IMG/VR virus record: IMGVR_UViG_3300007960_000015
Span: 1-64,000 of that record
Reading direction: 5' to 3' (one strand)
DNA: 64,000 nucleotides
Source of the DNA: a virus
Shown here in pieces: positions 12,606 to 41,926 of this stretch (position 1 is its first letter; every line of letters begins with the position of its first letter). The notes beneath the pieces were generated by a model that was not told where the DNA came from, ran no database searches, and worked only from the letters and a program-made list of their open reading frames with translations. Position numbers and translations under genes: made by a program.

Positions 12606-14705
12606 ATGGCCAATACTATTAACGTTAATCTTACAGATACTTTTGAAATTTGGAGAACCAAGACTAATGAGATTGGTACTGCAGTAGGTGATCTTGATAA
12701 TTTAAATCTTGCTGGTGAATCTGGTGAAGATACAGTAATAGATACTTTAAATAATCTACGAAGTGAGGCGGATGACCATGAAAGTTGGATTGGTAATATT
12801 AACAACCTCCATACTAGTCATACAGATTTAACAAGTGCTTCTAATGCTAATAAAGCAGATATTGATACAATAGCATTAGCTGGCGGTATCGACTTGGTTA
12901 ATGGCGGATTATCAGGATATAATGGAAGTGAGTCAGCTGCTGTAGATATCTTTAATGCTCACTTATCAGCTATTCAATCAAATGATAGTGATATCTTAAC
13001 ACTCCAAACAGATTTAAATACTGCTGAAACAGATATCGTAGCTATTGAAACTGATATCGGTGATTTCTCTACATACACAGGAAGTCAGAGTGATATTACA
13101 TCAGTATTAAATGATTTCAAAACAGCCTTAGATGGTACTTCAGGCACTTATGTAGACGCTACTGGTGATACCATGACGGGTGATTTATACTTTACCTCTG
13201 GCGGGGTTCAAGCTTCTGGACAATACTTAAATTTAGGTGTTGGTGGTACACAAACTATTCGTATTAATACATCAAATAGAATTGGTATTGGTAAGGCAGC
13301 ACATACATCTTATAAAATGGATGTTTCAGGAACATTAAATGCTACTGAATTGAGAGTTGGCGGACAAGATACTGACGATCGTTATATTATGAACTCAACC
13401 GGTGGTGGTACTTCTACTATTGGTTCTGATATTGAATTATCGGGTGATGTTACTATTTCACAAAAATTATTAATTGGTTCTGAGACAGTATTTGATGACT
13501 CAGCATTCTCATTTAGTGAATACATTGAAGATGTTGCTGGTAATATGTTCGAATTAAATGCAGAATCTGGTGGTATCGCGGCAGCCTACAATGATACTAC
13601 AGGTAAGATTACATTATCTATTGCTGACGACGGCCACAATCACGTTATTGGTAATATTGATAACTTCACAGAAGAAGTACAAGATATCGTTGGTAATATG
13701 ATATCTAACAATTCAGAGTCTGGTATATCCGTAGATTATGATGATATAACAGGTACTTTAGATTTTAATGTAAATGATCCAACTATTACTTTAACAGGTG
13801 ATGTTACAGGTTCAGCTACAATGTCAAATCTAGGTTCTATTACTATTGCCACTACAGTTGGTAGTAATAATGTGGCGTTAGGTACTGATACAACAGGCAA
13901 TTATGTTAAACAAGGTGCAACGAGCGGTAACGGTATTTCTGGATCTGTTAATAGTGAAGGGGGAACATTTACTGTAACCTCGAACGCTACTTCTAATAAT
14001 ACAGCTTCAACAATTATCTTTAGAGATGCTTCTGGTGATTTCGCAGCTGGTTCTGCAAGTCTTACTGGTTTATCTGTTACTAATGATGCTACTTTTAATG
14101 GTAATATTACTGTTAATGCTGATGACGCGGCATCTACTATTGTGATGGGTGATTCTGATGAAGGTAATAGAACTATTAAGAATGATTCGAATCAAATAGG
14201 TTTCTTGAAGCAGGATGGTGCTTGGGCTGCTTATGCTGACGATAATGGTAATTGGACAGCCGCAGGAGATATAACAGCTTCTGGTGGTGATATGTATGCT
14301 ACTTATTTCCACGGTCAGGCTACTTCTGCTACTTACGCCGACCTAGCAGAGAATTATGTGGCAGATGATAATTATCAACCAGGAACAGTATTAGTTTTAG
14401 GTGGCGAAGAAGAAGTTACTCAAGCAGTTAATCAAAATGATAGGGCTGTTATAGGAGTTGTTTCAACACAACCAGCACACTTAATGAACTCTGGTTTACA
14501 AGGGCCAATGGTAGTTGCTGTTGCATTAGTAGGACGTGTTCCTTGTAAAGTAACCGGACCAATTAAGAAAGGTGATCTTTTAGTTTCAGCAGGACACGGC
14601 GCTGCTATGGCAAATAATAATCCTCAAGTAGGAACTGTAATTGGAAAGGCATTAGAAGATTCAGACGGTGAGAATGTCATTGAAGTCGTAGTCGGTAAAT
14701 TATAA
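12606..14705 (+). CDS. Tail fibre/collar-type protein with C-terminal autoproteolytic (peptidase G2-like) chaperone domain
   Basis: N-terminal TDTFEIWRTKTN and coiled coil; G/T/S-rich body; C-terminal YADLAENY..PGTV..GVVST.P..VALVGRVPCKV.G.IKKGDLL. Confidence 0.75.
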   Translation: MANTINVNLTDTFEIWRTKTNEIGTAVGDLDNLNLAGESGEDTVIDTLNNLRSEADDHESWIGNINNLHTSHTDLTSASNANKADIDTIALAGGIDLVNGGLSGYNGSESAAVDIFNAHLSAIQSNDSDILTLQTDLNTAETDIVAIETDIGDFSTYTGSQSDITSVLNDFKTALDGTSGTYVDATGDTMTGDLYFTSGGVQASGQYLNLGVGGTQTIRINTSNRIGIGKAAHTSYKMDVSGTLNATELRVGGQDTDDRYIMNSTGGGTSTIGSDIELSGDVTISQKLLIGSETVFDDSAFSFSEYIEDVAGNMFELNAESGGIAAAYNDTTGKITLSIADDGHNHVIGNIDNFTEEVQDIVGNMISNNSESGISVDYDDITGTLDFNVNDPTITLTGDVTGSATMSNLGSITIATTVGSNNVALGTDTTGNYVKQGATSGNGISGSVNSEGGTFTVTSNATSNNTASTIIFRDASGDFAAGSASLTGLSVTNDATFNGNITVNADDAASTIVMGDSDEGNRTIKNDSNQIGFLKQDGAWAAYADDNGNWTAAGDITASGGDMYATYFHGQATSATYADLAENYVADDNYQPGTVLVLGGEEEVTQAVNQNDRAVIGVVSTQPAHLMNSGLQGPMVVAVALVGRVPCKVTGPIKKGDLLVSAGHGAAMANNNPQVGTVIGKALEDSDGENVIEVVVGKL

Positions 14706-20321: not shown

Positions 20322-21170
20322 ATGGGTTGGTCAGGATTTAGAAGTGGAATGTCGGATGGTCAGATTAGAACCCATACCGACGGCCGTAAATGGCAATGGA
20401 GTTCCTCAAATGGAAGATGGAATGTAGTAAGGAACACGACGACCACACTTGGTAACACAGGCCCAATGCCTGATCACCAATGGAATGGATACGAACTTAG
20501 ATTCGAGTCTGATACTGGTGTTTGGGGAAGTTATACCAATCTTCGTGGTGCCACTGGCCCCCAAGGACCTACATTTACAGGTGGAACAAATCAACAAGTT
20601 ACGGATGATGCTTATTTCCTTAGCGAAATATATTATAATAAATGGGCAAGAAATGATGGAACAGAAGGTTTATACTGGACCGCTCATGGCAATCATTTTC
20701 ATGCTATCAATTCACAAGACATCAGAGTAAGAACCGGCTCAGGTAACGGTGGATTACAATTTACTGTTTCTGATACTACTGCTAGAGGATATATACATGC
20801 TACTACGTCTAATGAAATTGGATTCTTAAATTCAAGTAGAAGTTGGTCCTTTAGATGTGATAATTCAGGAAATGTTACTGCAACATCTAATGTTACAGCT
20901 TATTCTGATAAGCGTCTAAAAGATAATATAAATACTATTGAGAACGGACTTGAGAAAGTAGAAGCCTTACGAGGCGTAACTTATACAAGGAAAGATAATG
21001 GTGAAGCAGGTATTGGTGTTATCGCCCAAGAGATCCAAGAGGTTTTACCTGAGTTAGTAAAAGATAATGGTGAAGCGTTATCTGTAGCCTATGGTAATAT
21101 TACGGGCGTACTTATTGAAGCTGTTAAGGAATTATCAGCACGTGTTAAAGAACTAGAAGATAATAAATAG
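20322..21170 (+). CDS. Distal tail fibre with C-terminal peptidase S74 intramolecular chaperone
   Basis: NVTAYSDKRLKDNI..I.N.LEKV..LRGV.Y...GVIAQE...VLPE.V...SVAYGN....LIEAVKEL; AAGGAG RBS. Confidence 0.88.
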   Translation: MGWSGFRSGMSDGQIRTHTDGRKWQWSSSNGRWNVVRNTTTTLGNTGPMPDHQWNGYELRFESDTGVWGSYTNLRGATGPQGPTFTGGTNQQVTDDAYFLSEIYYNKWARNDGTEGLYWTAHGNHFHAINSQDIRVRTGSGNGGLQFTVSDTTARGYIHATTSNEIGFLNSSRSWSFRCDNSGNVTATSNVTAYSDKRLKDNINTIENGLEKVEALRGVTYTRKDNGEAGIGVIAQEIQEVLPELVKDNGEALSVAYGNITGVLIEAVKELSARVKELEDNK

Positions 21171-28314: not shown

Positions 28315-28944
28315 ATGGCTCGTCCTTTACAAATTAAATATAATTCTGGCTCATTCCAAGGCATCCAAGAAATTGGATCAAATATGACTTTGGGTGATGA
28401 ATCTACTGCCACTACTAAAATTACTTTTAAGGGGCACACAACTCAACATGGTGAGTTTTATTCACAACATGTTGATACAGATACAGGTTCGCCGAATGCT
28501 GGATATTCTTTCCACTTTAATTCGACAGAAACCTCCACAAATGTAGTTCTTGATAATGGTGGATATTTCATTGGAACTGCTACTTCAGTTGATTATGCGG
28601 ACTTGGCAGAGAAATATTTACCCGATGCAGAATATGGCGAAGGTGTTGTATTAGCTATTGGTGGTGAGAACGAAGTTACTGAATATAAATCAGGCATGCC
28701 TTTAGCAGGCGTTGTTTCTCTTATACCAGCATTTGAAATGAATTCAAGTTTAGAAGGTGGTGTATTTGTAGCACTAAAAGGACGTGTTCCATGTAAGATT
28801 AATGGTTCGGCAAAGAAAGGCGATATTATCATTGCTGATGATAATGGTGCTGGAAAGGCTGTTGATGCTATTACCACATTTGCTGATCAAAAGATTGGTA
28901 TTGCTTTAGAAGACGGTGAGGGAATAATTGAAGTAAAAATTTAA
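28315..28944 (+). CDS. Short fibre-like protein with peptidase G2-like autocleaving domain
   Basis: YADLAEKY..G.VL.IGG..EVT...GVVS..P...VALKGRVPCK..G..KKGD, paralogous to the C-terminus of 12606. Confidence 0.7.
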   Translation: MARPLQIKYNSGSFQGIQEIGSNMTLGDESTATTKITFKGHTTQHGEFYSQHVDTDTGSPNAGYSFHFNSTETSTNVVLDNGGYFIGTATSVDYADLAEKYLPDAEYGEGVVLAIGGENEVTEYKSGMPLAGVVSLIPAFEMNSSLEGGVFVALKGRVPCKINGSAKKGDIIIADDNGAGKAVDAITTFADQKIGIALEDGEGIIEVKI

Positions 28945-28950
28945 TATATA

Positions 28951-29685
28951 ATGATTGGTATTATTGGTTATGGTATGGTTGGCTCTGCCTTAAAAGAAGC
29001 CTTCTACAAAGAAACAATAGTTGTTGTAGATCCTAAATTTAATGATGTAACTATTAAAGATTTAGTTAATCGCAAACCCAAAGCAATATTTGTTTGTGTT
29101 CCTACTCCAACAGATAATTCAAACTACATTATAATAAGAAGTGTTCTGGATGAACTCAAACTCTTATATGATGGTTTGGTTATAGTAAAATCTACAATTC
29201 TTCCTGAAGTTCTTGAACCCTATGATGTTATATACAATCCTGAGTTTTTAAGTAGGGCTACAGCTAAAGACGATATGGTTAAACCTCCGATGGTAGTGAT
29301 TGGTGGTGATTCAGAAGAAAAATGTAACAAGTTGGCTGCATTATATGCGAAGCACTCTATTATTGATTTAAGTAATTTATTCTTTTGTACAGTAAGACAA
29401 GCTTGCTATATTAAATATATGATGAATACATTTTATGCAACGAAGATAACGTTTATGAATGAAATGTATGATATAATTAATTCAGCTGAAGATTTTGAGG
29501 TAGTAACTCAGGCTTGCGCAGCACATCCTTGGATGGGTACACATCATTTTCAAGTACCAGGTCCAGATGGAAAGCGTGGATTCGGTGGCCCTTGCCTTCC
29601 CAAGGATACTAAGGCATTAAATGATATGAATCCGGATTCTTTATTAGGAAAGGTATTGGAGTTAAACGAAACATATAGAAAATGA
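28951..29685 (+). CDS. UDP-glucose/GDP-mannose dehydrogenase family protein (short)
   Basis: GYGMVG; CVPTP; KST; NPEFL; KY..N.F.A.KI.F.NE; GFGGPCLPKD. Confidence 0.85.
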   Translation: MIGIIGYGMVGSALKEAFYKETIVVVDPKFNDVTIKDLVNRKPKAIFVCVPTPTDNSNYIIIRSVLDELKLLYDGLVIVKSTILPEVLEPYDVIYNPEFLSRATAKDDMVKPPMVVIGGDSEEKCNKLAALYAKHSIIDLSNLFFCTVRQACYIKYMMNTFYATKITFMNEMYDIINSAEDFEVVTQACAAHPWMGTHHFQVPGPDGKRGFGGPCLPKDTKALNDMNPDSLLGKVLELNETYRK

Positions 29686-30689
29686 AAACATTATTAGTTG
29701 TAATGAGTGAACAATGCAATTTAAATTGTTCTTATTGCAATGTAGATAAATGGTCAAAGACAAAGATTGACGTTAATACCTTTATAGATTATTATAAAGA
29801 CCAAAGAAAGAAATATCCTGATGAGATGTTTAAGATTGATTTCTTTGGTGGTGAACCCCTCCTGCAGTTTGATGTTATGAAGGATATCGTGGCAAGAACA
29901 GAACACGATCCTTTAGTAAAATATTTTATGCCTACTAATGGATTGGTTATCACCCAGGAGAAATTAGACTTTATAATTGATAAGCAAATAGAAGTATCAT
30001 TATCATTTGATGGTTTATGGCAAGATGATAATAGACCACAATTAAGTGGAAGTGGTACATTAACTAAATACCTAGCCAAGAAAGATATATTAAAACAAAT
30101 TCCTAATCTTAGATGCCACTCTATGATAGGTTCTGGTAATCATAATTTATTAGAAAATCATTTGTTTATTGAAGATGTGTTTGGTGTTGCCTCTGAATTT
30201 ACATTAGTTAGAGACATTGGTATTTGGGATAAAGAAGGTGTTGAATCATTAAAGGAAGGTATAAAGGAATTAATGGAATGGTATTCTGTTAATACCCATA
30301 GAGAAATGCCTTTTTATATACGCTATTATTTAAGACATATGATAATGGCAAAGTATAAACAAGAAGAGGTTGATTCTTGTGGGGCTGGTGAATCTTTATT
30401 TACATTTAATGAAGATAATTCAGTAGTACCTTGTAATAGATTTAAAGATCAACCGGATGTTATTGCGAAGATACCTGAATTTAGAAAGATGTCCCCTTGT
30501 CAAACCTGCGAAGTAAGATCTTACTGCAGAAAGGGATGTTTATATGAGCAGATAAATAATAATGGACCTATTGAAGAATTGTGTGAGATATACAAATATA
30601 CCTATAAAAGTATTGGTCAGCTGGTAGCTAATGTACAGGATGATCCAAACTTCCAAGCCGTAGTGAAGGAGGAAATTGAAAATGGCTAG
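29682..30689 (+). CDS. Radical SAM/SPASM protein 1 (maturase-type)
   Basis: CNLNCSYC; FFGGEPLL; TNG; SFDG; SPASM-type CGAG...PC...CQTC.....CRKGC. Confidence 0.9.
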   Translation: MKTLLVVMSEQCNLNCSYCNVDKWSKTKIDVNTFIDYYKDQRKKYPDEMFKIDFFGGEPLLQFDVMKDIVARTEHDPLVKYFMPTNGLVITQEKLDFIIDKQIEVSLSFDGLWQDDNRPQLSGSGTLTKYLAKKDILKQIPNLRCHSMIGSGNHNLLENHLFIEDVFGVASEFTLVRDIGIWDKEGVESLKEGIKELMEWYSVNTHREMPFYIRYYLRHMIMAKYKQEEVDSCGAGESLFTFNEDNSVVPCNRFKDQPDVIAKIPEFRKMSPCQTCEVRSYCRKGCLYEQINNNGPIEELCEIYKYTYKSIGQLVANVQDDPNFQAVVKEEIENG

Positions 30690-30900
30690 TATTAAACAAA
30701 TGAATAAGGCTTTATTTAAGTCTTCTGCTCATCTATTTGAAGCAGCAAAATATCTATCAAATGTAGAGGAATTTCGTGAAGAGGCGGTGATGCTTCTTGA
30801 AATGGCAGACGAAATGTCTAGTATTATCCAACCTGAAAAAGAGAAAGTATCAAAGGATAAAATGGCCGATATATTATCAGAGATTACAAAAAATGCATGA
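30682..30900 (+). CDS. Small helical hypothetical protein between the two rSAM/SPASM genes
   Basis: ATG 30682 downstream of AAGGAGG; overlaps both neighbours. Confidence 0.6.
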   Translation: MASIKQMNKALFKSSAHLFEAAKYLSNVEEFREEAVMLLEMADEMSSIIQPEKEKVSKDKMADILSEITKNA

Positions 30901-32029
30901 AATAAGTAACCAATTTACGTTAGAAATTACCACAGCAGCTCTATGTAACTTAGACTGTACTTATTGCTTTGAAGGTGCAAAGACAAATAAGAGACGTTTA
31001 GATACAGAACAAGTAGCAGCCTTGAAAAAAAGAATCTATGATTTTTTAGATAGTGATTTCTTTAAAGATAATTACGACAATCTGAATATATCTTTTTGGG
31101 GTGGTGAACCCACTCTAAATCCTGATTTAATTATTAACATTATGCAAGAGTATCAGCATATAGACAATGTCGGTTTCCATATTTACACTAATGCTTATGA
31201 AAGAAGAAGATTAGATAAGATTGTAGATAATATTGATAAGAGTAAACTTAATGTACAGATATCATATGATGGCCGGGATATTAATGATGTGTTTAGAGTA
31301 ACTGCTACTGGTAAGTCATCTGCTGATAAAGTATTAGAGAATCTTGAATACTTTGCTAAGAAAGGTGTTGCTATTTCGATGAAATCGACTATACCTCTTA
31401 AATCAATGAGAACATTATATTCTACTTGGAAAGACTTTGAAAGAATGTATGAGAAGTATAATGCTATTGGTGATCATGTACAAATATCTTATGCCCCTAC
31501 TATTGACTATGTTGATGAATTACCTAGAGATGAAGCAGAAAAGCTTGTTGAAATATTCCGTGAGCAGATGATTAAAGTTGCTGCCGAAGAAATTAAATTT
31601 GTTAACAAACACCAAAGACATTTATGCACTTGGTTTAATGGTTCTGATTCCAAACAGCATTGTGCTGCTGGTGCACACATGCATGCTATTGATGTGGATG
31701 GTAATAGTTATGCTTGCCATGGTGCTTTATACTCTCCTAATAAAGAAAAGATGCACGGAGGTAATATTGAGGATGAAAACTTTATAAATAAGATTGAGAA
31801 GATGAGTAATGAATATTCATCAGTAATTGGCCGCGGAGTAAGCGACGTCTGTAAAGACTGTGTCGCTACAACGTGTATGATTTGCCCGGTAGCCTCATTC
31901 GATATGAGTAATAAAGAAGACCACATGGATAGGTGGACCGATAGATGGGTAAACAACATGTGCGGATTTTTTAAGGCGTTTGGAGAAATAGATAGAACAG
32001 TTCAAGCGCATTTAGACGGAGATTTATAA
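30893..32029 (+). CDS. Radical SAM/SPASM protein 2 (maturase-type)
   Basis: Likely start ATG 30893 (MHEISNQ); CNLDCTYC; FWGGEPTL; ISYDG; CAAG..C..CKDC....CMIC. Confidence 0.9.
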   Translation: MHEISNQFTLEITTAALCNLDCTYCFEGAKTNKRRLDTEQVAALKKRIYDFLDSDFFKDNYDNLNISFWGGEPTLNPDLIINIMQEYQHIDNVGFHIYTNAYERRRLDKIVDNIDKSKLNVQISYDGRDINDVFRVTATGKSSADKVLENLEYFAKKGVAISMKSTIPLKSMRTLYSTWKDFERMYEKYNAIGDHVQISYAPTIDYVDELPRDEAEKLVEIFREQMIKVAAEEIKFVNKHQRHLCTWFNGSDSKQHCAAGAHMHAIDVDGNSYACHGALYSPNKEKMHGGNIEDENFINKIEKMSNEYSSVIGRGVSDVCKDCVATTCMICPVASFDMSNKEDHMDRWTDRWVNNMCGFFKAFGEIDRTVQAHLDGDL

Positions 32030-32748
32030 TGGCATGTTCAGGAAGTCATTGCAGTAATCATGGAACTGGTACTTCTACTTGTTCCAACCATAGAGGTACT
32101 TGCTCTACTAACAGGGCTTATAGCCCCTCTAGTGAGTTCACTGGAGGTTCAATTACAGCAGCAGATATCAATCTACTAAGAACTAATATTAGAGATGAGA
32201 TAACACGTTATAATCTTCATGCGGATCATTCTCACACACTACGCCAGGGCTCTGCTTATCAAACATCAACTGTAATAGATAATGCTCATATTAATGATAT
32301 GGAGCAAATGGTATATGATGGTGAGAATAGAAAAGAAAGAGTTGGATCTAACTATGCATCTGTAGCTGGTGCTACTACCTGGGGTAATAAATCTATATCT
32401 TCATATTCGGAAGGTTCTGTAATTAATGCATCACACTGGACAACACTTAAATCAAGATACGATAATCTAAGAACAGATTGTATATGTAATTCGGATTGTT
32501 CATGTAATCTAGTTTGTGCTTGTCATAATGACTGTGGTTGTAACTACTCTGATATTAGATTAAAGAGAGAGATTCAATTCCTTGAAAAACGTGGTGATAT
32601 TAATTATTATTCATTTAAGTATATTTGGGATAATGTTAGAAGAACTGGTGTTATGGCACAAGAGATTCTTGAATCTAAGTGGAAAGATGCTGTGAAACAA
32701 GATAAGAAAGGTTATTATATGGTAGACTATTCAATGCTGCCTCAATAA
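32029..32748 (+). CDS. Cys-rich fibre-like protein with (CxCxxx)4 array and C-terminal S74 chaperone
   Basis: N-terminal C3/C8/C18/C25; I.A.HI/W..L repeats; CICNSDCSCNLVCACHNDCGCNY then SDIRLK...Y.F.Y...GVMAQEI...V...GY..VDYS. Confidence 0.8.
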   Translation: MACSGSHCSNHGTGTSTCSNHRGTCSTNRAYSPSSEFTGGSITAADINLLRTNIRDEITRYNLHADHSHTLRQGSAYQTSTVIDNAHINDMEQMVYDGENRKERVGSNYASVAGATTWGNKSISSYSEGSVINASHWTTLKSRYDNLRTDCICNSDCSCNLVCACHNDCGCNYSDIRLKREIQFLEKRGDINYYSFKYIWDNVRRTGVMAQEILESKWKDAVKQDKKGYYMVDYSMLPQ

Positions 32749-32764
32749 AAAAAGGAGTTATATT

Positions 32765-33376
32765 ATGATGCTTTATGAACTCGCGTTGGTCGAAGACCGC
32801 GGATCCTATTGGTTTGTTACAAACGTAACAAGAAACACCCTAGACAATTTAGCAGAGGAAGGAGAAACAGTCCTTAAACTTTCTGCTAACTCATTTAAAA
32901 TTATTAGTGATGCTATCAATGATGGTAAGGCTGTACATATTACAAAAACACGTATGGCTAGTGAAGTACTACCAATGGAGATTGAGGTACTAGATCATAG
33001 TGAGACTGATCCATTAGATGAAGCTAGAAAGGCAGCTCTTATTAAGGTTAGAATGTTAGTTACGCCTGAGTTAGCTAAAATATCGGGTTTCGCATTATAT
33101 GGATTTATGATGCTTAATAATGATCTGGCTAATGCAGGATTCTTTATTACTAACGATAATAGGGAAGAGAAGTATCTCTCTATTCTTGAAACAGGTAATG
33201 AAGATTTAATTGAGAAGTTAGAAGATTATTTAAATTATAAAGACGAGATTGAAAATGTAGCTCATCTAGAAAGAAAGTTTTCTAAATTCAAAAAAGATCT
33301 TAGAATTGCAACCACTGTAGAGGATGTACAAGGAATCCAAGATAGATTCCTAGATAAATTCTATTCAAATTTCTAA
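32765..33376 (+). CDS. Hypothetical protein (possible partner/chaperone of the Cys-rich fibre)
   Basis: AAGGAG RBS; 203 aa; helical C-terminus ending I..ATTVEDV..I, reminiscent of fibre assembly chaperones. Confidence 0.55.
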   Translation: MMLYELALVEDRGSYWFVTNVTRNTLDNLAEEGETVLKLSANSFKIISDAINDGKAVHITKTRMASEVLPMEIEVLDHSETDPLDEARKAALIKVRMLVTPELAKISGFALYGFMMLNNDLANAGFFITNDNREEKYLSILETGNEDLIEKLEDYLNYKDEIENVAHLERKFSKFKKDLRIATTVEDVQGIQDRFLDKFYSNF

Positions 33377-34170
33377 TGAGACTTGCTGTAGTCTATAAGT
33401 TTAAAAATCATAATAAACTTAACGGAACACTCTTTTATTGCTACGAATACTATAGAAAATTAAGGGAAAGTTATCCTTGTACAAAGTTTGTTATTATAGG
33501 CATTGAACCTGATAATATTAAACTTATTGAGAAGGTATTTAAAGAAAAGTATAATAACTTTTATCCGATGGATATCATTCCATTCAAATCAGTAATTAGT
33601 TTATGGAAACAAAAGTTTGATCGAACTCTAATATTGGACATTGATACCTTTTATCAATGTAAAGAGTTTTGCACTAACGAAGTCCATGTGTTTAGTAATG
33701 ATACTCATGAGATGTATCGATACCCTGATGATAGACAAGTAACATACTATGGTGTGTATCCATACCAAAGATTCGATAAAGAATGTATGTTAAAACTCAA
33801 CTTTAATATAATGACTCCGGCTCAGAATAAACCTGGTGTGTTTGTTTCCTGTTTAGATATGACTCATCTAAAAAATAATATAAACAGATATGAAAGAGAG
33901 TTTCAAAGGCCTATTATATTAAAGAAAAGTCATGAGGGGTCTGGTTCAATTTTTGATGAAATTAACCAGGTGCATTATGTCCATGTACAAAGAGATACAA
34001 ATAATAGAATTATACCCGAAGCATTCTTTCATAATAAGAAACTAACAATAGAAGAAGTATATAATGAAGATGATTCTATTATGAGGCGATATAATGATAT
34101 TATTAATAATGGATTAGATAATTATACTTTAAGTGATAGTGATTTGATGATTAAGGCATGTCTGCGATAG
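33376..34170 (+). CDS. Putative GT-B glycosyltransferase-like protein
   Basis: C-terminal NRIIPEAFFHNKKL resembles the GT-B E-motif region; distant paralogue of 34158. Confidence 0.4.
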   Translation: MRLAVVYKFKNHNKLNGTLFYCYEYYRKLRESYPCTKFVIIGIEPDNIKLIEKVFKEKYNNFYPMDIIPFKSVISLWKQKFDRTLILDIDTFYQCKEFCTNEVHVFSNDTHEMYRYPDDRQVTYYGVYPYQRFDKECMLKLNFNIMTPAQNKPGVFVSCLDMTHLKNNINRYEREFQRPIILKKSHEGSGSIFDEINQVHYVHVQRDTNNRIIPEAFFHNKKLTIEEVYNEDDSIMRRYNDIINNGLDNYTLSDSDLMIKACLR

Positions 34171-35036
34171 TAAAATTAGAAAATAAAGATCTTTGGCTTA
34201 CCTATTCATGGAGTAATAATAACCATGGAATATGTGGACATACCTATGAAGTTATTGATTATTGGTATATCTTAAAAGATAAAATGAATGTGGGTATTGT
34301 CTTATGTGAAGACATTGACTCAGATACATTATTTAAAGCTGTGAGGTGTAGATATAACTTTAATACTTTAGAGATATCGGAATTAGAAAACTCAGTTGTA
34401 TTTCATAATAGACCAAAGATACTTACTGGAGGCTCTAAAATATTATTTACAGATGGTGGTATTGTAAATATGAGTAATGTCACATTATTATATGATAAGA
34501 TATATTATATGGCTTGTGGTAATAAACAGGTAAAAGATAATAATAAAGATAATGTGTATATTCTACAAGATGATAGAGTATATGAGAGAGTTAAAAAGAA
34601 TGGAATACATTATGTTAAGAAGATTCTATTTGATAAGTTAAAGAAGCCAAGAGGGCAGTTAAATAATACTTTGGTTTATGGAACTAAGAATTGCAGACAT
34701 ATTGAAGATTATAGTGATTTACATCAATATGGCAATCTTTTAATTGTAACTAATAAAGAGAATAAACCTAAGGGATTGGTATCACTCCAGCCTCCAGTGC
34801 CTGATATATTCAGATTATTTAAGACATATGTGTATACACCAGTAGCTAGGAAATGGGATTGTTCTCCAAGATTTTTAGCAGAATGTGTATACTTCAATAA
34901 AGAAGTTATCTTTCATAATATAGATTATTGGGAAGAGGATCACGGATTAAGAGTTAGATGGGACGATATCCAAAATAATTTTGAGAGTTTATATCTTAAA
35001 GAAGATGATCCAATAATAGAGATTTTAAATGATTAG
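34158..35036 (+). CDS. Putative GT-B glycosyltransferase-like protein
   Basis: YVYTP...WDCSPRFLAECVYFNKEVI. Confidence 0.4.
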   Translation: MSAIVKLENKDLWLTYSWSNNNHGICGHTYEVIDYWYILKDKMNVGIVLCEDIDSDTLFKAVRCRYNFNTLEISELENSVVFHNRPKILTGGSKILFTDGGIVNMSNVTLLYDKIYYMACGNKQVKDNNKDNVYILQDDRVYERVKKNGIHYVKKILFDKLKKPRGQLNNTLVYGTKNCRHIEDYSDLHQYGNLLIVTNKENKPKGLVSLQPPVPDIFRLFKTYVYTPVARKWDCSPRFLAECVYFNKEVIFHNIDYWEEDHGLRVRWDDIQNNFESLYLKEDDPIIEILND

Positions 35037-35862
35037 CATTGAGATTATCGAAGGCTGTAATTTTAAGTGTTACTTTTGTGCGGCCAAAGATATTGACAAA
35101 TATAAGTTTATGGATATTGATGTCTTTAAGAAAGCTGTGCTTGAGGCGAGGGAACTAGGTATTAAGACAGTTGATATGATTCCTTCCAGAGGTGATCCAT
35201 TTCTTCATCCGCACATTTATGAGATGTTAGACTTCATAAATGAGCATATGGAAGAGATTTTAATATTTACTAATGCTACTCCTGTTAATGTAGCTAAGCT
35301 AAGTCAGTGTAATCTATCCCACACTATATTATCCATCTCTCTTTATGGAAAGACAACAGAAAAATTTATTGAGTTAACAAAGACAGATGAGAGAATGTTT
35401 AATAAATTTAATAAAAAGCTGAGGGAACTAGATGAGGCTGGTATAAAATATAACATAGAGAGAAGGGATGAGGACTATGAATTCGATACTCATGGAGTAG
35501 CAAAAAACGATTTTGATGCGTCTCAGAAGTGTAAATTTCATCATATACCGAAGATTCTTGTGGATGGTAGTGTAACATTCTGCCGTACTGCCTGGAGTAG
35601 TAATGGTCTTTCTATTGGTAATCTATCTAACAAAGACCTACATGATATGTTATCAGATCCTATAAGATATAAGTTTATGGACTCCCAAAGTATATGTGAA
35701 CATGCATGTGATTCATATGAGATTAATTGTAACACAAAGACAACATTCGCTGCTATAAAACTGATGAGTGAAAGCAGAGCTAGATACTTAAGTAGTCATG
35801 TTGATACTGAAATTAGATATAAGAAATTAGAAAATGAGACTATACAACGAACTGAGTCATAG
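35029..35862 (+). CDS. Radical SAM protein 3 (Twitch/SPASM)
   Basis: CNFKCYFC; GDPFLHP; TN; C...DGSVTFC..IGNL..C...C. Confidence 0.88.
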   Translation: MISIEIIEGCNFKCYFCAAKDIDKYKFMDIDVFKKAVLEARELGIKTVDMIPSRGDPFLHPHIYEMLDFINEHMEEILIFTNATPVNVAKLSQCNLSHTILSISLYGKTTEKFIELTKTDERMFNKFNKKLRELDEAGIKYNIERRDEDYEFDTHGVAKNDFDASQKCKFHHIPKILVDGSVTFCRTAWSSNGLSIGNLSNKDLHDMLSDPIRYKFMDSQSICEHACDSYEINCNTKTTFAAIKLMSESRARYLSSHVDTEIRYKKLENETIQRTES

Positions 35863-36841
35863 AGAAATTGAAATAGATTATGATACTCCATATTGTAATC
35901 GTGGTAAATTAGATACAGGAACTCACTGTAACTATCGCTGTGGCTTTTGTTATTACTATAATCAGTTAGACCAGAAGACTCCCTTTAAGGAAGTTAAAAA
36001 AAGAATAGATCATTTGGTTGAATGTGGTATTGCTGAAGCAGATTTATCTGGTGGTGAGAGCTCTATACATGCAGACTGGTTTAATATCCTGGATTACTGT
36101 AAAGAAAAAGGATTGAAAGTTTCTTGTCTCTCAAATGGATCAATGTTTTCTAAGTATGAATTTTTAGAGAAATCAAAGCAGCATGGATTAGATGAGATAC
36201 TTTTTTCTTTACATGGCTTTGATGAAGAAAGTCATAATAAATTAGTTGGTGTTAAGGCCGGCTTCAGAAAGATAACTCAATCAATAGTGTTTGCAAATCA
36301 GTTAGGTATTAAGGTAAGACTTAATTGTACTGTAACAAAAGACAATTATAAGGAACTAGATAACAAGTTTGTTGATCTTGTCCATCAGTTTGATGTAGCA
36401 CAAGTTAATTTTCTAACTCTAAACTATTGGGACGATGCAAATGCACAGGATGCATTCCCATATAAGGAAGCAACAGAGTCAATAAAAAGAGCTATTGATA
36501 AGTTAGAAGTACCAGACAAAAGAGTACGTTATACTCCCTTCTGCTATCTTAAGGGTTACGAAAAACACCTCTTCGGGTATTATCAACATATCTATGACCT
36601 CTCTGATTGGAATATCGCTACCTATGGACATACTATTGATCCGAGAGAGTATGTCGGTAACGAGTTAAAGCATTTATATTTAGCTGCTGAGAGGCAGAGA
36701 AACGCAACTTATAAGAAAAATAAAGAGTGCCTGGATTGTAAACATTATTATATCTGTGATGGATATGAAAAGAAACATGGTGAACTGGAAGTGTTTCCAG
36801 AGCCTGGGGAAAAGATTAAGAAGGTAACACATTACTTATGA
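35834..36841 (+). CDS. Radical SAM protein 4
   Basis: CNYRCGFC; LSGGE; SNG; SLHG; PFC; CLDC.....CDG. Confidence 0.88.
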   Translation: MRLYNELSHREIEIDYDTPYCNRGKLDTGTHCNYRCGFCYYYNQLDQKTPFKEVKKRIDHLVECGIAEADLSGGESSIHADWFNILDYCKEKGLKVSCLSNGSMFSKYEFLEKSKQHGLDEILFSLHGFDEESHNKLVGVKAGFRKITQSIVFANQLGIKVRLNCTVTKDNYKELDNKFVDLVHQFDVAQVNFLTLNYWDDANAQDAFPYKEATESIKRAIDKLEVPDKRVRYTPFCYLKGYEKHLFGYYQHIYDLSDWNIATYGHTIDPREYVGNELKHLYLAAERQRNATYKKNKECLDCKHYYICDGYEKKHGELEVFPEPGEKIKKVTHYL

Positions 36842-37479
36842 ATATTCTAGTTATTGGTGGTGGCGAATATGGAAAGTTCGGCAACGACTTTGTAATAAAG
36901 GCAAGAGAAGATGGACATAGAGTCCTTGTCTTATCTCATAGAAGAAGAGCAGATGATCCAGATCAGGTTATTGCTAACTTCACATCAACAAATGATATTA
37001 TAGAGAAGGTAAATTTTTTATGTAAATTAGTTGACCAAATCGATATTATGTTGTATAATACATCTGCCGATGGGGAGCCCAGGGTGCCTATAGCCTATAC
37101 GAGTGGTGGTGTTATTAATGAGAGTCTTTATCTGTTTAACTTCAGACTTCATGCTGTTATTCCTCATGTAATTGCTAATACTGTAATGGAATATATGAGG
37201 GGCGGAAAGATGATCTTTATTACTACCGACATGATTCATGATAGAGAAAGAAGTAAGTATCTTGAGAATGTTGGTTATTGTGGCGGTAAGGCATTCCAGC
37301 ATCAGTTAATGTTAGCGTTAGCTGAATATAATGATAGGAACTTAACTGTATCTTCTATCTCTCCTTTCTTTGATTATAATAATAAAGAGTGTTATAAGTC
37401 AGTATTTGATGCCGCATACAATTATATTTTTGATCATGGAGAAGAGATGAATGGAAAGATATTCGAGTGTTTTGATTAA
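36838..37479 (+). CDS. Short-chain dehydrogenase/reductase-like protein
   Basis: N-terminal ILVIGGGEYGKFG; IDIMLYN; YCGGK (YxxxK). Confidence 0.65.
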   Translation: MNILVIGGGEYGKFGNDFVIKAREDGHRVLVLSHRRRADDPDQVIANFTSTNDIIEKVNFLCKLVDQIDIMLYNTSADGEPRVPIAYTSGGVINESLYLFNFRLHAVIPHVIANTVMEYMRGGKMIFITTDMIHDRERSKYLENVGYCGGKAFQHQLMLALAEYNDRNLTVSSISPFFDYNNKECYKSVFDAAYNYIFDHGEEMNGKIFECFD

Positions 37480-38114
37480 TGCATGATGATTACTACCTTG
37501 GTGGATATGATGATGAAGGAACATACACCTTATATGTTACCTATAAGTGTAACTGGAGATGTGACTATTGCTCAGAAGATACATGGAATAGACCGAGGGT
37601 TAATAACCTGCAGGAGAAACTTGACGCCATTGTAGAAGGATCGGATGTATCAATTACTGGTGGAGAGCCAGGTATCCTTCCTAAGGATATAATGGAAGAT
37701 GTCATTAGGCAACTGAAAGAAAAGAAATGTATAATAAATGTCAATACAAATGGAACATTTTTTAAGAGGTTTAAGTATCTTGATGAACAGGTAGATAGTT
37801 ATCTCTATCATTGTTCAGAGCAATTAGAGGATGAAGAGATTATTATCCCTGACATTGATCAGAATAAGATACAATACATGTTAGTCATTACAGATGACAA
37901 TATGGATAGGTTAGAATATTATGTAAGTAAGTATCCTAATATAAACTTTTTAGTGTTTGGAGCTGATAATGTTATTGGTAAAGGACTATCAAGGAAGAAT
38001 GGTTTTGAGATATCAAGAAAGTACAGGGGAAGGATAGATGATGATTCACATATACATTTGATTACAACCTGCTGGGAAGTAAATCAGATGAGGAATCTAA
38101 GAGCATTACGATGA
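37479..38114 (+). CDS. Radical SAM protein 5 (minimal)
   Basis: CNWRCDYC; ITGGEPG; NTNG; YHCSE. Confidence 0.88.
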   Translation: MHDDYYLGGYDDEGTYTLYVTYKCNWRCDYCSEDTWNRPRVNNLQEKLDAIVEGSDVSITGGEPGILPKDIMEDVIRQLKEKKCIINVNTNGTFFKRFKYLDEQVDSYLYHCSEQLEDEEIIIPDIDQNKIQYMLVITDDNMDRLEYYVSKYPNINFLVFGADNVIGKGLSRKNGFEISRKYRGRIDDDSHIHLITTCWEVNQMRNLRALR

Positions 38115-38683
38115 AGGAAGTAGAATTATCATTAACTAATAAGTGTCAATGGCACTGTGATTATTGTGTAGCTGATATACATAATCAACCTCTTCGTAAA
38201 TATAAAGATGTATTAGAAGATGCGAGGAATATATTACCTAAAACAGAAGTAACTTTTTCTGGTGGTGAGCCTGGCCTTCTTAAAAGAGAACAGATTAAGG
38301 AGTTAATTTCTATACTGGAAGAAAAAAACTGTCCGATAGATCTATTAACTAACGGACTTTTCATAAAGAGATTTCCTGATTTATTAAAACATTTTGGAAA
38401 GGTTCATTATCATTGTGTAGAATATATCGGAGATGACATTGAATTTCCTAATAGAGATGATGTAATATATTGTGTTGTGGTTGAAGATAAGAACTTATTA
38501 GACGGAAGTTTAATTAAGATGATTAATAGATATCCTCATATTAAATTTTTAACTTTATTTGACGTAAGGAACCAACACAAGATTAATCTTAATAATATGA
38601 AGAAGTTTGTTAATGAATATAAAGATAAGATACATCCTACGGCTTTAGATGAATTCATTACTGTAGTGAGTAGGTGGCATTGA
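38111..38683 (+). CDS. Radical SAM protein 6 (minimal)
   Basis: CQWHCDYC; FSGGEPG; LTNG; YHCVE. Confidence 0.88.
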   Translation: MKEVELSLTNKCQWHCDYCVADIHNQPLRKYKDVLEDARNILPKTEVTFSGGEPGLLKREQIKELISILEEKNCPIDLLTNGLFIKRFPDLLKHFGKVHYHCVEYIGDDIEFPNRDDVIYCVVVEDKNLLDGSLIKMINRYPHIKFLTLFDVRNQHKINLNNMKKFVNEYKDKIHPTALDEFITVVSRWH

Positions 38684-39288
38684 TGGCTATACAAGCGAAA
38701 GAAAAAGAAATTGAATTAGTTATTACTTGGACTTGTCAATGGCATTGTGAATATTGTTGTGTAGATACTCATAACAGGCCTAAATTATCTTTTGATGAAG
38801 TTAAAAAGAAATTAGATAAAATTATACCCGGATATAATGTGACATTATCTGGCGGTGAACCTGGTGCTCTAAAAAGAGAGCAATTAGAATTTTTATTAGA
38901 TGAGCTTGAGAAGAGAGGATGTGAACCTTCTATCAATACTAATGGTTTATTCTTAAAGAAGTATCCAGATCTTATTGATAGATTCGCCACGATATTGTAT
39001 CATTGTAGTGAAGATATTAATTTGGATGATCCATTGTTAATAGGTGATTATGAATATCTATTAATAGTAACCGATAATAACTTTGAAAGGCTAGGACCAT
39101 TTTTAGACAAGTATCCGGATATACAATTTAATTTAGTAGCTGCTACCAATCCGAAGGGAATATACGGTGTTACTTTATCTATTGAAAACAAACATAAAAT
39201 GTTAAAACTATACCATAATAGAATGACTAAAGAATCTATTAAGAGAGTATTTAAAGAGAAAGATTTTGATGCAATCACCTATCTATAA
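38683..39288 (+). CDS. Radical SAM protein 7 (minimal)
   Basis: ATG 38683 (TGATG coupling); CQWHCEYC; LSGGEPG; NTNG; YHCSE. Confidence 0.88.
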   Translation: MAIQAKEKEIELVITWTCQWHCEYCCVDTHNRPKLSFDEVKKKLDKIIPGYNVTLSGGEPGALKREQLEFLLDELEKRGCEPSINTNGLFLKKYPDLIDRFATILYHCSEDINLDDPLLIGDYEYLLIVTDNNFERLGPFLDKYPDIQFNLVAATNPKGIYGVTLSIENKHKMLKLYHNRMTKESIKRVFKEKDFDAITYL

Positions 39289-40153
39289 AGAACAAAATAA
39301 AGAAGACATAATCAGGATTGAATTAGAATTAACTTCTCTTTGCAATCTTAAATGTCCCTTATGTGTAAGAGAAACATTTCCGGTTGCCAAATATGATACA
39401 AGAGGGTATAATAGTATTATTGAGCAATTAAATGAGTATTCGAATCTTAAATTTGTAACTATAGCCGGTGCGATAAGTGAACCTACTAGTCATCCCGATC
39501 TATTTAAAATAATACAGTATCTTAATGATAGAGATATTGAAATTTCATTATACATTAACGGTGATACTAAAACAGATTTATATTACTCTAAATTAGGATT
39601 AATATTTAGGGGATGTAAGGGCCATGTCTATTTCACTATTGCTGGATCAACACAAGAACTCCATGAGAGATATAGAGTAGGATCAGATAGACAAAGGGTA
39701 TTAAGGCGTTTAGATTTAGTTAACAAATATTCTGGTAATAAAGGCATATTAACGTGGTTGGTATTTAATTATAATCAGGAGGATTTTGAACAGAACTATC
39801 AATATTATAAAGACAGATATAATACTGAGTTCTTTCATACTCTTCCTTTCCAAGAACATTTTAATTGGGATATAGATATACACCTACCTAAAAAAGAACA
39901 TGAATTGTATATAACTCAGATTAATAGAAATGTATATCCAACAACTTGCGTATCTAATCAAAATAACTTTGTACAGATATTACATGATGGGGAGGTAACT
40001 CCCTGTTCTTTATATAGACTCCATGGTGAAAAACATTGTTGGGAGTGCCATAAAGAAAACCTGGATATGTTAAGAAAGAATAAGATTTATAATATAGCAG
40101 AGAGTGAAACTGAGACCTCTGAAATACCATTAAGGTTGTATTATGATTGTTAG
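39269..40153 (+). CDS. Radical SAM protein 8 (Twitch-like)
   Basis: ELTSLCNLKCPLCVR; GAISEPT; TIAGSTQELHERYR; C..DGEVTPC..CWEC. Confidence 0.88.
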   Translation: MQSPIYKEQNKEDIIRIELELTSLCNLKCPLCVRETFPVAKYDTRGYNSIIEQLNEYSNLKFVTIAGAISEPTSHPDLFKIIQYLNDRDIEISLYINGDTKTDLYYSKLGLIFRGCKGHVYFTIAGSTQELHERYRVGSDRQRVLRRLDLVNKYSGNKGILTWLVFNYNQEDFEQNYQYYKDRYNTEFFHTLPFQEHFNWDIDIHLPKKEHELYITQINRNVYPTTCVSNQNNFVQILHDGEVTPCSLYRLHGEKHCWECHKENLDMLRKNKIYNIAESETETSEIPLRLYYDC

Positions 40154-41054
40154 TAAAGCGGATATTGAAGAAATAGAAATGGATTTGGTGGGGATGTGTA
40201 ATCTATCGTGTCCTCTGTGTACTAGAAATTATGTTCATGCAGAACATATGCTATCTAAAAATGTACGCCATATTGATGAGATAATTAAACAATTAGATCA
40301 ATATCCCAACTTACAAAGGTTCTTTGTTGCTGGCGCTGTATCTGAACCTACTATGTACAAATACTTCGATGAATTTATTGATTATTTAAATAGCAGAGAC
40401 ATATATTATGAAATATTCACTAATGGTAATACAAGAAGTGAAGATTGGTGGTATCAATTAGGACAGAAGGTTCCTTCAAAATGTTTTACAGCATTTACTA
40501 TATGTGGAAGCAATCAAGAAATGCATGAGAAATATAGAGTAGGTTCTTCATTAGATGAAATCCTAAGGCATGCCAGGGCTTATAGAAAGGCCGGAAAGAA
40601 TAATGATATGATACAAACTATTAGATTTGATTATAATAAAGAAGATTTAGAGTCATCTCAAATGAAAGAACTTATTGATGAGTTCTCTCTTCATCTTCCT
40701 GTTGATACTGAAGGAATAAGAAGGCGTAATGAATATCAAGAAGATGTAGCAGATGGTGTACAGCCCATTGAGATTAGAGATCAACTTATTAAACAATTAT
40801 TTGCGAGAAGACCTAAACCAGATGATGGAAAGGAATATACTATACAATGTAACTCCATAAAGAATAAAAAAATATACATTAATCAATATGGACAGGTAGC
40901 TGCTTGTTATATCCACGCAGAGAATGAACAGGATTATTTTGACGATGTAATGGATTATGGTGATATTTTAGAATTTAAATACCCGGATTGTTTTGTATGT
41001 GAAAAACAAACGAGAACATTTATTGAAAAAATGGGATTAGAATTTATATGTTAA
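40143..41054 (+). CDS. Radical SAM protein 9 (Twitch-like)
   Basis: CNLSCPLCTR; GAVSEPT; TICGSNQEMHEKYR; C..GQVAAC..CFVC. Confidence 0.88.
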   Translation: MIVSKADIEEIEMDLVGMCNLSCPLCTRNYVHAEHMLSKNVRHIDEIIKQLDQYPNLQRFFVAGAVSEPTMYKYFDEFIDYLNSRDIYYEIFTNGNTRSEDWWYQLGQKVPSKCFTAFTICGSNQEMHEKYRVGSSLDEILRHARAYRKAGKNNDMIQTIRFDYNKEDLESSQMKELIDEFSLHLPVDTEGIRRRNEYQEDVADGVQPIEIRDQLIKQLFARRPKPDDGKEYTIQCNSIKNKKIYINQYGQVAACYIHAENEQDYFDDVMDYGDILEFKYPDCFVCEKQTRTFIEKMGLEFIC

Positions 41055-41926
41055 TTGAAGAAATTGAAATTGAATTAACCTCTATATGTAATGCGAAATG
41101 CCAATTGTGTTATAGGAATTATAAAAGTTATAAGCCCACTAAAATCATTAGACCTATTGATGATGTTATATCTCAATTGGATAGTTATAAGTCACTTAAA
41201 CGCATTAAATTAGTAGGAGTAGAATCGGAGCCTACTATCCATCCTGAGTTTCTTAAATTGATTACTTGGCTAAAATCAGAGGATATTCATATTGAAATAT
41301 GTACTAACGGCGATACTAAAACACCTGCCTTTTGGAGAAAATTGGGTATACTATTAGATAAGGACGATGAAGTTTATTTTACTATATGTGGAAGTACTCA
41401 AGAGCTACATCAAAGATATAGAAGAAATACCAGATTAGATAAAATACTTAGGAATGCGGCTGCTATGAGGGAAGCAGGAAAGCCGACCGATTATGCACAA
41501 TGTATTAGATTCTCATATAATGACGAGGACTTTAATAGTAAGAAATTTCAGGATATGGTATCTGTATTCTCCAACGTCTATTGGACTGAAACCTATCTCC
41601 ATAAAGATTTAAATAATTATGTTGATATTGAAGGGATGGAATATTTAACCCCACCTATACAAAAGCAAGATAGTTATTATAAGGTAGAATTATTAGCTGA
41701 TGCTTTATATAAAGCAGATGGATTTAAAGAGACATTATGTATGGCTGAAGAAAGTAAGTCGATTCAGATAGATGTTCATGGTAATCTATATCCGTGTTAT
41801 CTTCATAAAGAAGCTGATATTCCGTGGACGGGTGAGTATGGAAGTGGAGAGATTGAAACATGCAAGTTTTGTATTAAAGGCGTTAGACAATTATGTCATG
41901 ATAAACAATTGGAGTATGTAATATGA
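41048..41926 (+). CDS. Radical SAM protein 10 (Twitch-like)
   Basis: ELTSICNAKCQLCYR; GVESEPT; TICGSTQELHQRYR; C..GNLYPC..CKFC. Confidence 0.88.
   Translation: MLIEEIEIELTSICNAKCQLCYRNYKSYKPTKIIRPIDDVISQLDSYKSLKRIKLVGVESEPTIHPEFLKLITWLKSEDIHIEICTNGDTKTPAFWRKLGILLDKDDEVYFTICGSTQELHQRYRRNTRLDKILRNAAAMREAGKPTDYAQCIRFSYNDEDFNSKKFQDMVSVFSNVYWTETYLHKDLNNYVDIEGMEYLTPPIQKQDSYYKVELLADALYKADGFKETLCMAEESKSIQIDVHGNLYPCYLHKEADIPWTGEYGSGEIETCKFCIKGVRQLCHDKQLEYVI

Follow-up and report, generated by a model that had tools for sequence, protein, structure and literature searches.

A cysteine-array protein encoded directly behind radical SAM/SPASM enzymes in T4-like phages: a candidate for RiPP-like thioether maturation on the protein scale

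The DNA stretch analysed here, referred to below as the window, comprises positions 1 to 64,000 of the IMG/VR record IMGVR_UViG_3300007960_000015 and is part of a 79.5-kb viral contig with an estimated completeness of 44%. The source phage is a T4-like myovirus, whose gp6 baseplate wedge protein is nearest to those of the Methylophilales phage Melnitz and the Pelagibacter phage HTVC008M. The window contains a cassette in which two radical S-adenosylmethionine (rSAM) enzymes of the SPASM type, named here R1 and R2, precede the gene of a 239-residue protein with a periodic array of cysteines, the only Cys-rich non-enzyme encoded in the window. The genes and their overlaps, together with the (CxCxxx)4 array and the SDIRLK motif that opens a peptidase S74 chaperone, all lie where an earlier note, made from the sequence alone, had placed them (Table 1). 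Adjacent cassette genes overlap by 1-14 nucleotides (nt), and the R2 stop codon and the start of the array gene share the letters TAATG, with a GGAG 10 nt upstream. The best reading of this arrangement is a protein-scale thioether maturation resembling that of ribosomally synthesised peptides with post-translational modifications (RiPPs). Since ten consecutive rSAM genes stand in a row in the window (29682 to 41926, 12 kb, with sugar-nucleotide genes next), two rSAM neighbours are unremarkable there; what counts is the pairing of R2 with the array gene, which is conserved across other genomes.

Table 1. Features of the Cys-array cassette, with positions in the window.
Feature	Position (nt)	Strand	Match or remark
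fibC, 209-aa protein with tail-fibre C-terminal-type domain	28315..28944	+	PHROG tail-fibre families (aa 82-200)
Truncated UDP-glucose/GDP-mannose dehydrogenase-like protein, 244 aa	28951..29685	+	Pfam PF00984, PF03721; phrog_9148
R1 (rSAM1), radical SAM/SPASM enzyme, 335 aa, no RRE	29682..30689	+	Pfam Radical_SAM; CteB match
Small three-helix protein, 72-74 aa, no Cys	30676/30682..30900	+	AlphaFold2 model
R2 (rSAM2), radical SAM/SPASM enzyme, 378 aa, ATG at 30893, no RRE	30893..32029	+	
Cys-array protein of 239 aa, with N-terminal Cys motif, three predicted helices, array and S74	32029..32748	+	
N-terminal Cys motif, aa 1-29: MACSG..C ... C..HR..C.TNR	32029..32115	+	
Cys array, aa 151-173, four CxC pairs, period six, ends CNY	32479..32547	+	Proposed substrate region
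Peptidase_S74 intramolecular chaperone, aa 174-239, Ser174 + Lys179	32548..32745	+	Pfam PF13884
p203, 203-aa conserved downstream partner	32765..33376	+	phrog_25260
aa, amino acids; RRE, RiPP recognition element.

The array consists of the four hexads CICNSD-CSCNLV-CACHND-CGCNYS (residues 151-174, nt 32479-32550, counting the first S74 residue). The codons of its eight Cys occupy nt 32479-32544; Asn172-Tyr173 come next, and SDIRLK follows directly. Searches with the array protein returned 184 relatives of near-equal length in 90% clusters and 323 clusters at 50% identity (E<=0.001). At every one of the eight positions, Cys is conserved in 160-162 of the 162 distinct relatives compared, the array positions N4, D6, N10, D/N18, N22 and Y23 are also essentially invariant, and Tyr173, just ahead of the predicted cut, is present in 162/162. 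Because the Cys as well as the N/D/Y columns are conserved in this way, the array is not a product of chance and is under strong selection. Relative to each Cys, an invariant Asn or Asp stands at +3 or -3, so that CxxN, CxxD and NxxC motifs arise. An AlphaFold2 prediction based on 32 relatives yielded three confident helices and a confident S74 part, with a predicted local distance difference test score (pLDDT) of 33-37 for the array in the monomer and below 50 for the N-terminal Cys motif. The repeats of the type I.A.H..L that the earlier note had taken for fibre-like coincide with predicted alpha-helices (residues 44-61, 85-99 and 134-149) and are not beta-fibre repeats. A Foldseek comparison of the monomer model with the PDB gave no match, and the array protein yielded nothing useful in sequence or profile searches of the PDB.

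Both enzymes exceed the cut-off of the Pfam family PF04055 (29.5 bits) with 39.1 bits for R1 and 47.0 bits for R2. The CxxxCxxC cluster motif is invariant in 21 and 25 relatives, with C12/C16/C19 in R1 and C18/C22/C25 in R2, and GGE(P) is kept in R1 and GGEP in R2. The seven cysteines of the SPASM region are all invariant in R1 (C233, C251, C273, C276, C282, C286, C301) and in R2 (C257, C275, C320, C323, C328, C331, C357). In profile searches against the PDB, CteB (5WGG) was the best match of both, followed by 8VPO and anSME; R1 scored 97.9 bits, aligned from CteB residue 97, and R2 71.3 bits in an alignment that spans the CteB SPASM region. The sequence of R2 in the region of auxiliary cluster I (Aux-I) is C..G...G..Y.CH; it agrees with CteB and lacks the additional Cys present in anSME. 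The Aux-I cluster of CteB leaves an open iron for the substrate Cys. The top NCBIfam model for both enzymes is PapB (NF047865; R1 110.8 and R2 107.3 bits against a cut-off of 340), and the models for QhpD, SCIFF, the CXXX-repeat family and anSME also score well, far below their cut-offs. From this ranking with all scores far under the cut-offs, R1 and R2 are placed, by sequence, as a new clade in the peptide/protein-modifying SPASM group; the expectation that both are SPASM-type rSAM enzymes nearest to thioether synthases is thus borne out by the NCBIfam and PDB matches. Close relatives of R2 were found only on viral contigs, and in GTDB the only matches share about 27% identity across most of the length or at most 35% across a part of it.

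The gene association was analysed in both directions. A full-length profile of the array protein (alignment A1) was swamped by generic S74 domains, so the forward set was collected with an array-specific DNA pattern in IMG/VR and an S74-free profile (A2) in metagenomes, and at least 300 nt of upstream DNA was needed. R2 ends at most 33 nt upstream of the array gene in 49/49 distinct loci, usually at -1 to +2 nt, and this adjacency persists in rearranged islands (L098, L102) and in loci that lack R1 (L042, L087-L089, L095). R1 lies upstream in 29/30 loci with enough DNA and is absent from the divergent clade formed by the latter loci, so that of the two-enzyme coupling first proposed, the R2 part holds universally and the R1 part fails in one clade. 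For the converse set, IMG/VR was scanned with an R2 profile, which gave 37 distinct R2 relatives with 24-67% identity. A Cys-array open reading frame (ORF) starts at most 300 nt downstream in 32 of these, including L128 and L129, which were recognised on inspection of the loci, and within 4 kb in another 4. The earlier note had allowed for homologues that commonly occur without rSAM neighbours; the pair was instead found together in 49/49 loci in the forward and 36/37 in the converse direction. Because the array family always lies directly behind an rSAM enzyme of the cysteine-stapling kind, the phage probably cross-links one of the proteins of its own particle.

Distant R2 relatives are accompanied by arrays of a different form, namely CxCxCNY heptads (up to more than 10), CHSx repeats or mixed forms in place of four CxCNxx units. 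The MAC(S/T)G N-terminus and the helices of the 239-residue protein recur in the heptad-type proteins (hhalign 99.3%, E 1.5e-20). The array types are diverse and the proteins nonetheless homologous, a pattern that fits a repeat substrate paired with a conserved enzyme. The heptad-array cassettes (L125, L131, L147, L124, L130, L134) often have two tandem array genes and often a third, R2-like paralogue between R1 and R2. The N-terminal Cys motif is kept in most relatives, including those with heptad arrays (MACTGH...). Within it, C-x-(T/S)-N-(R/K) (...HRGTCSTNR) resembles the C-x-P/A-x-R target of anSME-type enzymes in sulfatases. It is pure speculation that this motif (32029-32115) could be a second modification site, perhaps that of R1.

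Campylobacter phages carry 11-12 unexplained rSAM genes, 11 of them in CP220 (PMC2853527). In CP220, the homologue of R1 is gp023, that of R2 gp136, that of the dehydrogenase-like protein gp019 and that of p203 gp015. The CP220 protein gp140 (534 residues) contains six CxCxCNY heptads, and its array module matches the heptad family (alignment A6) with an hhalign probability of 99.5%; the direct hhalign comparison of A1 with gp140 was negative (2.7%), so the link to gp140 runs via A6 alone. The gp140 orthologue of phage IBB_35, gene 3-9, has the same array module and is among the proteins identified by mass spectrometry in purified particles, with 2.6% coverage (PMC3322345 supplement). In the cassette of the window, the PHROG tail-fibre matches are weak (E 1e-4 to 1e-3). 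Further Cys-rich proteins were noticed in these and other phages. CP220 gp032 (L009:12707-13078), a protein of 123 residues encoded near the portal gene, has 27 Cys in a strict period of three (CxN/CxD repeats). In Cronobacter phage CR5 (JX094500.1), two unannotated tandem ORFs of 130 and 147 residues (L105:3142-3534 and L105:3504-3947) have the N-terminus MAVSLN... in common, and each contains about twenty CxxxC repeats; a truncated third copy is CR5_156. The ORFs are situated between the rSAM pair CR5_154/153 and a virion structural gene, where the record has a minus-strand ORF partly over them.

The C-terminus of the 239-residue protein is indeed an S74 domain, as first supposed. Pfam Peptidase_S74 (PF13884) matches residues 174-215 with 24.3 bits against a cut-off of 22, covering profile positions 1-51 of 58, and S174, D175, R177, L178 and K179 are invariant in the 32 sequences of alignment A1, with a Ser-Lys spacing of five residues. 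SDxRLK is found in nearly all members that bear an S74 domain, most relatives have a precomputed PF13884 assignment, and tblastn matched the S74 ends of Brucella phage structural proteins. When the C-terminal forms were classed among 150 cluster representatives, 59 were found to end at most eight residues past the last CxC; a short stub with SDxRLK was present in 34 and one without it in 23, a long tail with SDxRLK in 23 and one without it in 10, and no CxC was found in the remaining one. In the stub forms, the rest of the chaperone follows directly downstream in another frame, several times with its own start codon. The array protein of such split loci retains only SDxRLKxxIxY(C), and a separate chaperone ORF of about 85-91 residues follows, the start of which overlaps the stop of the array gene in some loci (for example the 91-residue ORF L122:5787-6062; also L084, L078, L073, L081 and L075). 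A split gene is likelier than a programmed frameshift because the frame offset varies among loci. As judged from these sequences, the S74 domain is dispensable in the family, being fused, encoded in its own ORF or absent, with the protein ending ...CNY. The putative self-removing follower, as the earlier note had conceived the domain, is present in the 239-residue protein itself and in a minority of the family only. The further proposal that the array becomes the mature C-terminal tip gains support because natural relatives end at ...CNY, which is the predicted cut. An HMM (hidden Markov model) search detected a few proteins of 413-619 residues with the array module at the C-terminus, and a dedicated search for longer fused forms found none, which is weak evidence. 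A second S74 protein of the window (20322-21170, 282 residues, Pfam 63 bits) lies directly behind the gene of a 953-residue tail fibre and has a full chaperone including the terminal helix, without a Cys array and without an rSAM neighbour; it can be regarded as an internal control.

We consider it probable, at roughly 60%, that R2, together with R1, acts on the array protein. The exact thioether chemistry is held with less confidence than this enzyme-substrate relation, and the order of the steps and the location of the 239-residue protein in the virion are proposed as follows. R2, in most lineages together with R1, would act as a three-cluster SPASM enzyme without a leader-recognition domain on the unstructured C-terminal array. 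A Cys thiolate of the array would bind an auxiliary Fe-S cluster, the 5'-deoxyadenosyl radical would take a hydrogen from a neighbouring acceptor residue at +3/-3, predicted to be Asn154/160/172 or Asp156/168, a thioether ring would form, and the cycle would be repeated along the array. The S74 domain would then trimerise the protein and cleave itself off before Ser174, so that a short helical trimer of fibre-like form would carry a stapled ...CGCNY knob at its C-terminal tip; this trimer may be built into the particle with the help of p203.

Several known systems can be compared with this proposal. The SPASM enzyme QhpD forms Cys-to-Asp/Glu thioethers within a protein subunit, QhpC; R1 and R2 score 72 and 61 bits on the QhpD model (cut-off 453), whereas QhpC is a subunit of a periplasmic enzyme and has no repeat array. 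CteB/SCIFF, PapB/freyrasin and NxxcB/NxxcA are the best structural and family matches of R1 and R2 and share repeated Cys-plus-acceptor motifs; however, their substrates are leader-bearing peptides recognised through an RRE, while here an RRE is absent and the putative substrate has about 173 residues. The S74 domain resembles that of endosialidases and tail fibres in its Ser-x4-Lys start, its extreme C-terminal position and its Pfam match above the cut-off, but the version described here is short, has no terminal helix and is split off or lost in relatives; we know of no S74 protein whose cut site adjoins a Cys array. In Methanococcus voltae, CrpC forms ranthionine links at CxxQ/D motifs of CrpA, a Cys-rich protein, as determined by mass spectrometry (PMC13692751, 2026), and NxxcB joins Cys and Asn within NxxC motifs (PMC9389541). 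In view of these two precedents, the CxxN, CxxD and NxxC motifs of the array match a known acceptor logic. CrpC and CrpA are also similar in that the SPASM enzyme gene stands beside that of a Cys-rich repeat protein, and not of a short peptide, with motifs of the CxxQ/D type. The differences are that CrpC has an RRE and CrpA a leader-like N-terminus, that the system is archaeal, with no S74 domain and no phage or fibre context, and that TIGR04463, the model of the CrpC family with a cut-off of 525 bits, gives R2 a score of only 50.

Several results weigh against a thioether maturation by R1 and R2. Pfam SPASM (PF13186) was not reported for either enzyme at E<=0.01, and neither reaches an NCBIfam equivalog cut-off. 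Both start at the rSAM motif and align behind the RRE of CteB (from about residue 100 on), thus lacking an RRE, and no leader is evident in the array protein. One of the 37 R2 relatives, L127, has no array gene within reach, and in the Campylobacter phages the array gene is not adjacent to the R2 homologue, gp140 lying 2.3 kb upstream of gp136. The repetitive Cys composition may inflate the hhalign score that links the array modules. The adjacency of R2 and the array gene could in part reflect operon inertia, as the cassette sits among ten rSAM and sugar-nucleotide genes. Finally, regularly spaced CxC pairs in a trimer would also be suited to metal binding or disulfide knots.

The last point leads to the strongest of the rival explanations, which we nevertheless regard as unlikely, that the array provides a trimeric needle with a structural metal site or disulfide knot and that the rSAM enzymes serve sugar or other chemistry of the island. 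Three chains with CxC at four levels would provide six Cys per level for Fe, Zn, an Fe-S cluster or interchain disulfides, an option that the earlier note had also allowed. In a CxC pair, the two thiols point to the same side of a strand, the array keeps strictly to its period of six, and the low confidence of the array in the monomer fits a segment that folds only in the oligomer or with metal. HxH iron sites occur in T4 gp37 and in the spike tips of P2 and phi92, where paired ligands at i and i+2 are likewise repeated along a trimeric phage fibre tip, although the ligands there are His and not Cys and no dedicated enzyme is encoded beside them. The eight further rSAM genes and the sugar genes next door would also suit this explanation, yet it leaves the linkage to R2 specifically (49/49, 36/37) unexplained while the rest of the island varies. 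In addition, R1 and R2 fall in the peptide/protein-modifying SPASM clade and not among the sugar-acting rSAM enzymes, and more than 10 heptads (>30 Cys) go beyond the need of a simple needle site.

It is improbable, to a clearly greater degree, that the modified C-terminal 23-24 residues are excised and released as a peptide, metallophore or cofactor, with the S74 cut giving the C-terminal end. In the pathways of pyrroloquinoline quinone (PQQ) and mycofactocin, the SPASM enzyme works on a C-terminal Tyr-containing tail, and the invariant Tyr before the cut (162/162), the match of R2 to the MftC model (52 bits) and the RiPP-like overall layout recall such a precursor. However, the cassette has no protease for the N-terminal side of the array, the helical body and the N-terminus are conserved throughout the superfamily, the setting is a tail-fibre island with a fibre-type domain gene upstream, and the Campylobacter-phage relative is found in virions. 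A service of the Cys-rich protein to the rSAM enzymes, as Fe-S scaffold, iron or sulfur store or electron carrier, is very improbable. Ten rSAM enzymes do need clusters and reductant, and the Cys content is high, but there is no ferredoxin-type motif, a different role is indicated by the S74 domain and the fibre-type context, R2 is the only enzyme with which the protein is paired, even in phages with two or three cassette rSAM genes, and the array module was detected in IBB_35 virions.

Among the accessory genes, p203 lies at most 150 nt downstream of the array gene in 37/49 loci and at 234-945 nt otherwise, and it is also found behind heptad-array genes. It is possibly a fibre-assembly or adaptor protein; the matches to DUF4376 and tail-fibre assembly proteins are weak, with scores below 0.9, and are leads only. 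The small protein between R1 and R2 travels with R1, being present wherever it is detected by blast together with R1. The earlier note had suggested a check for an RRE/PqqD function of this protein; the candidate was rejected, as 0/26 members match PqqD and the fold is all-helical and not RRE-like. Its AlphaFold2 model (74 residues, pLDDT 91.8) is a three-helix bundle with helices at 6-27, 31-50 and 60-73, for which Foldseek against the PDB returned generic helical hairpins only. CP220 gp020 (L009:3329-3706), located between the dehydrogenase homologue and the R1 homologue, resembles it by eye (A.HL..A..Y..., ...DEILN motifs). In the close clade, R1 is preceded by the dehydrogenase-like gene. 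The cassette usually opens with fibC, which may be a functional part of the module because a homologue precedes R1 in many distant cassettes. The C-terminal domain of fibC (phrog_22593/6427/19602) is shared with a 699-residue fibre-like protein of the window (12606-14705).

The cassette falls within the island that the pelagimyophage literature names the host recognition cluster, a variable region with tail fibres, glycosyl genes and unexplained rSAM cassettes (PMC7029224). Three of the ten rSAM genes in the window are very short paralogues (37479, 38111, 38674), and the sugar-nucleotide genes that follow are accompanied by an amidinotransferase-like gene, a parallel to the clusters of rSAM and amidinotransferase genes of CP220 and CPt10 (PMC2853527). 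Near-identical DNA occurs in metagenomes labelled freshwater and marine. The array gene is covered to at least 99% by contigs of two RNA libraries from one marine study, which is not proof of transcription; stretches without such cover are uninformative. A search of cultured phages at the DNA level gave a single match of 100 nt, in CP220, within the p203 homologue.

Thioether stapling by rSAM enzymes is known for small peptides and, since 2026, for one archaeal protein (PMC13692751), so a SPASM maturase with a Cys-rich substrate is not new as such. The phage-encoded, protein-scale, RRE-less and S74-linked form is new, and no published description of such a phage system was found in the literature searched on thioether/SPASM maturation and Cys-rich virion proteins. 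New are also the converse association, the homology of the heptad arrays, the link of the array module to a published virion detection and the split or absent chaperone forms. As a wider generalisation, which we offer tentatively and rate slightly short of an even chance, T4-like phages of the ocean, of freshwater and of Campylobacter may staple a Cys-repeat of a fibre by thioethers with their own SPASM enzymes, the number of repeats being free and the chaperone fused, split or lost.

If the proposed maturation is true, it would be the first enzymatic, RiPP-type cross-linking of a structural protein of a virus, and virion maturation would gain a new kind of chemistry, in which the phage staples a protein of its own particle. 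The series of fused, split and absent S74 domains offers a natural test of the need for the chaperone. Leader-independent SPASM enzymes for protein substrates with a tunable number of repeats would become available, with a use in protein engineering. For the phages themselves, the finding would explain at least a part of the rSAM gene sets in Campylobacter phages (PMC2853527) and in the islands of pelagimyophages (PMC7029224).

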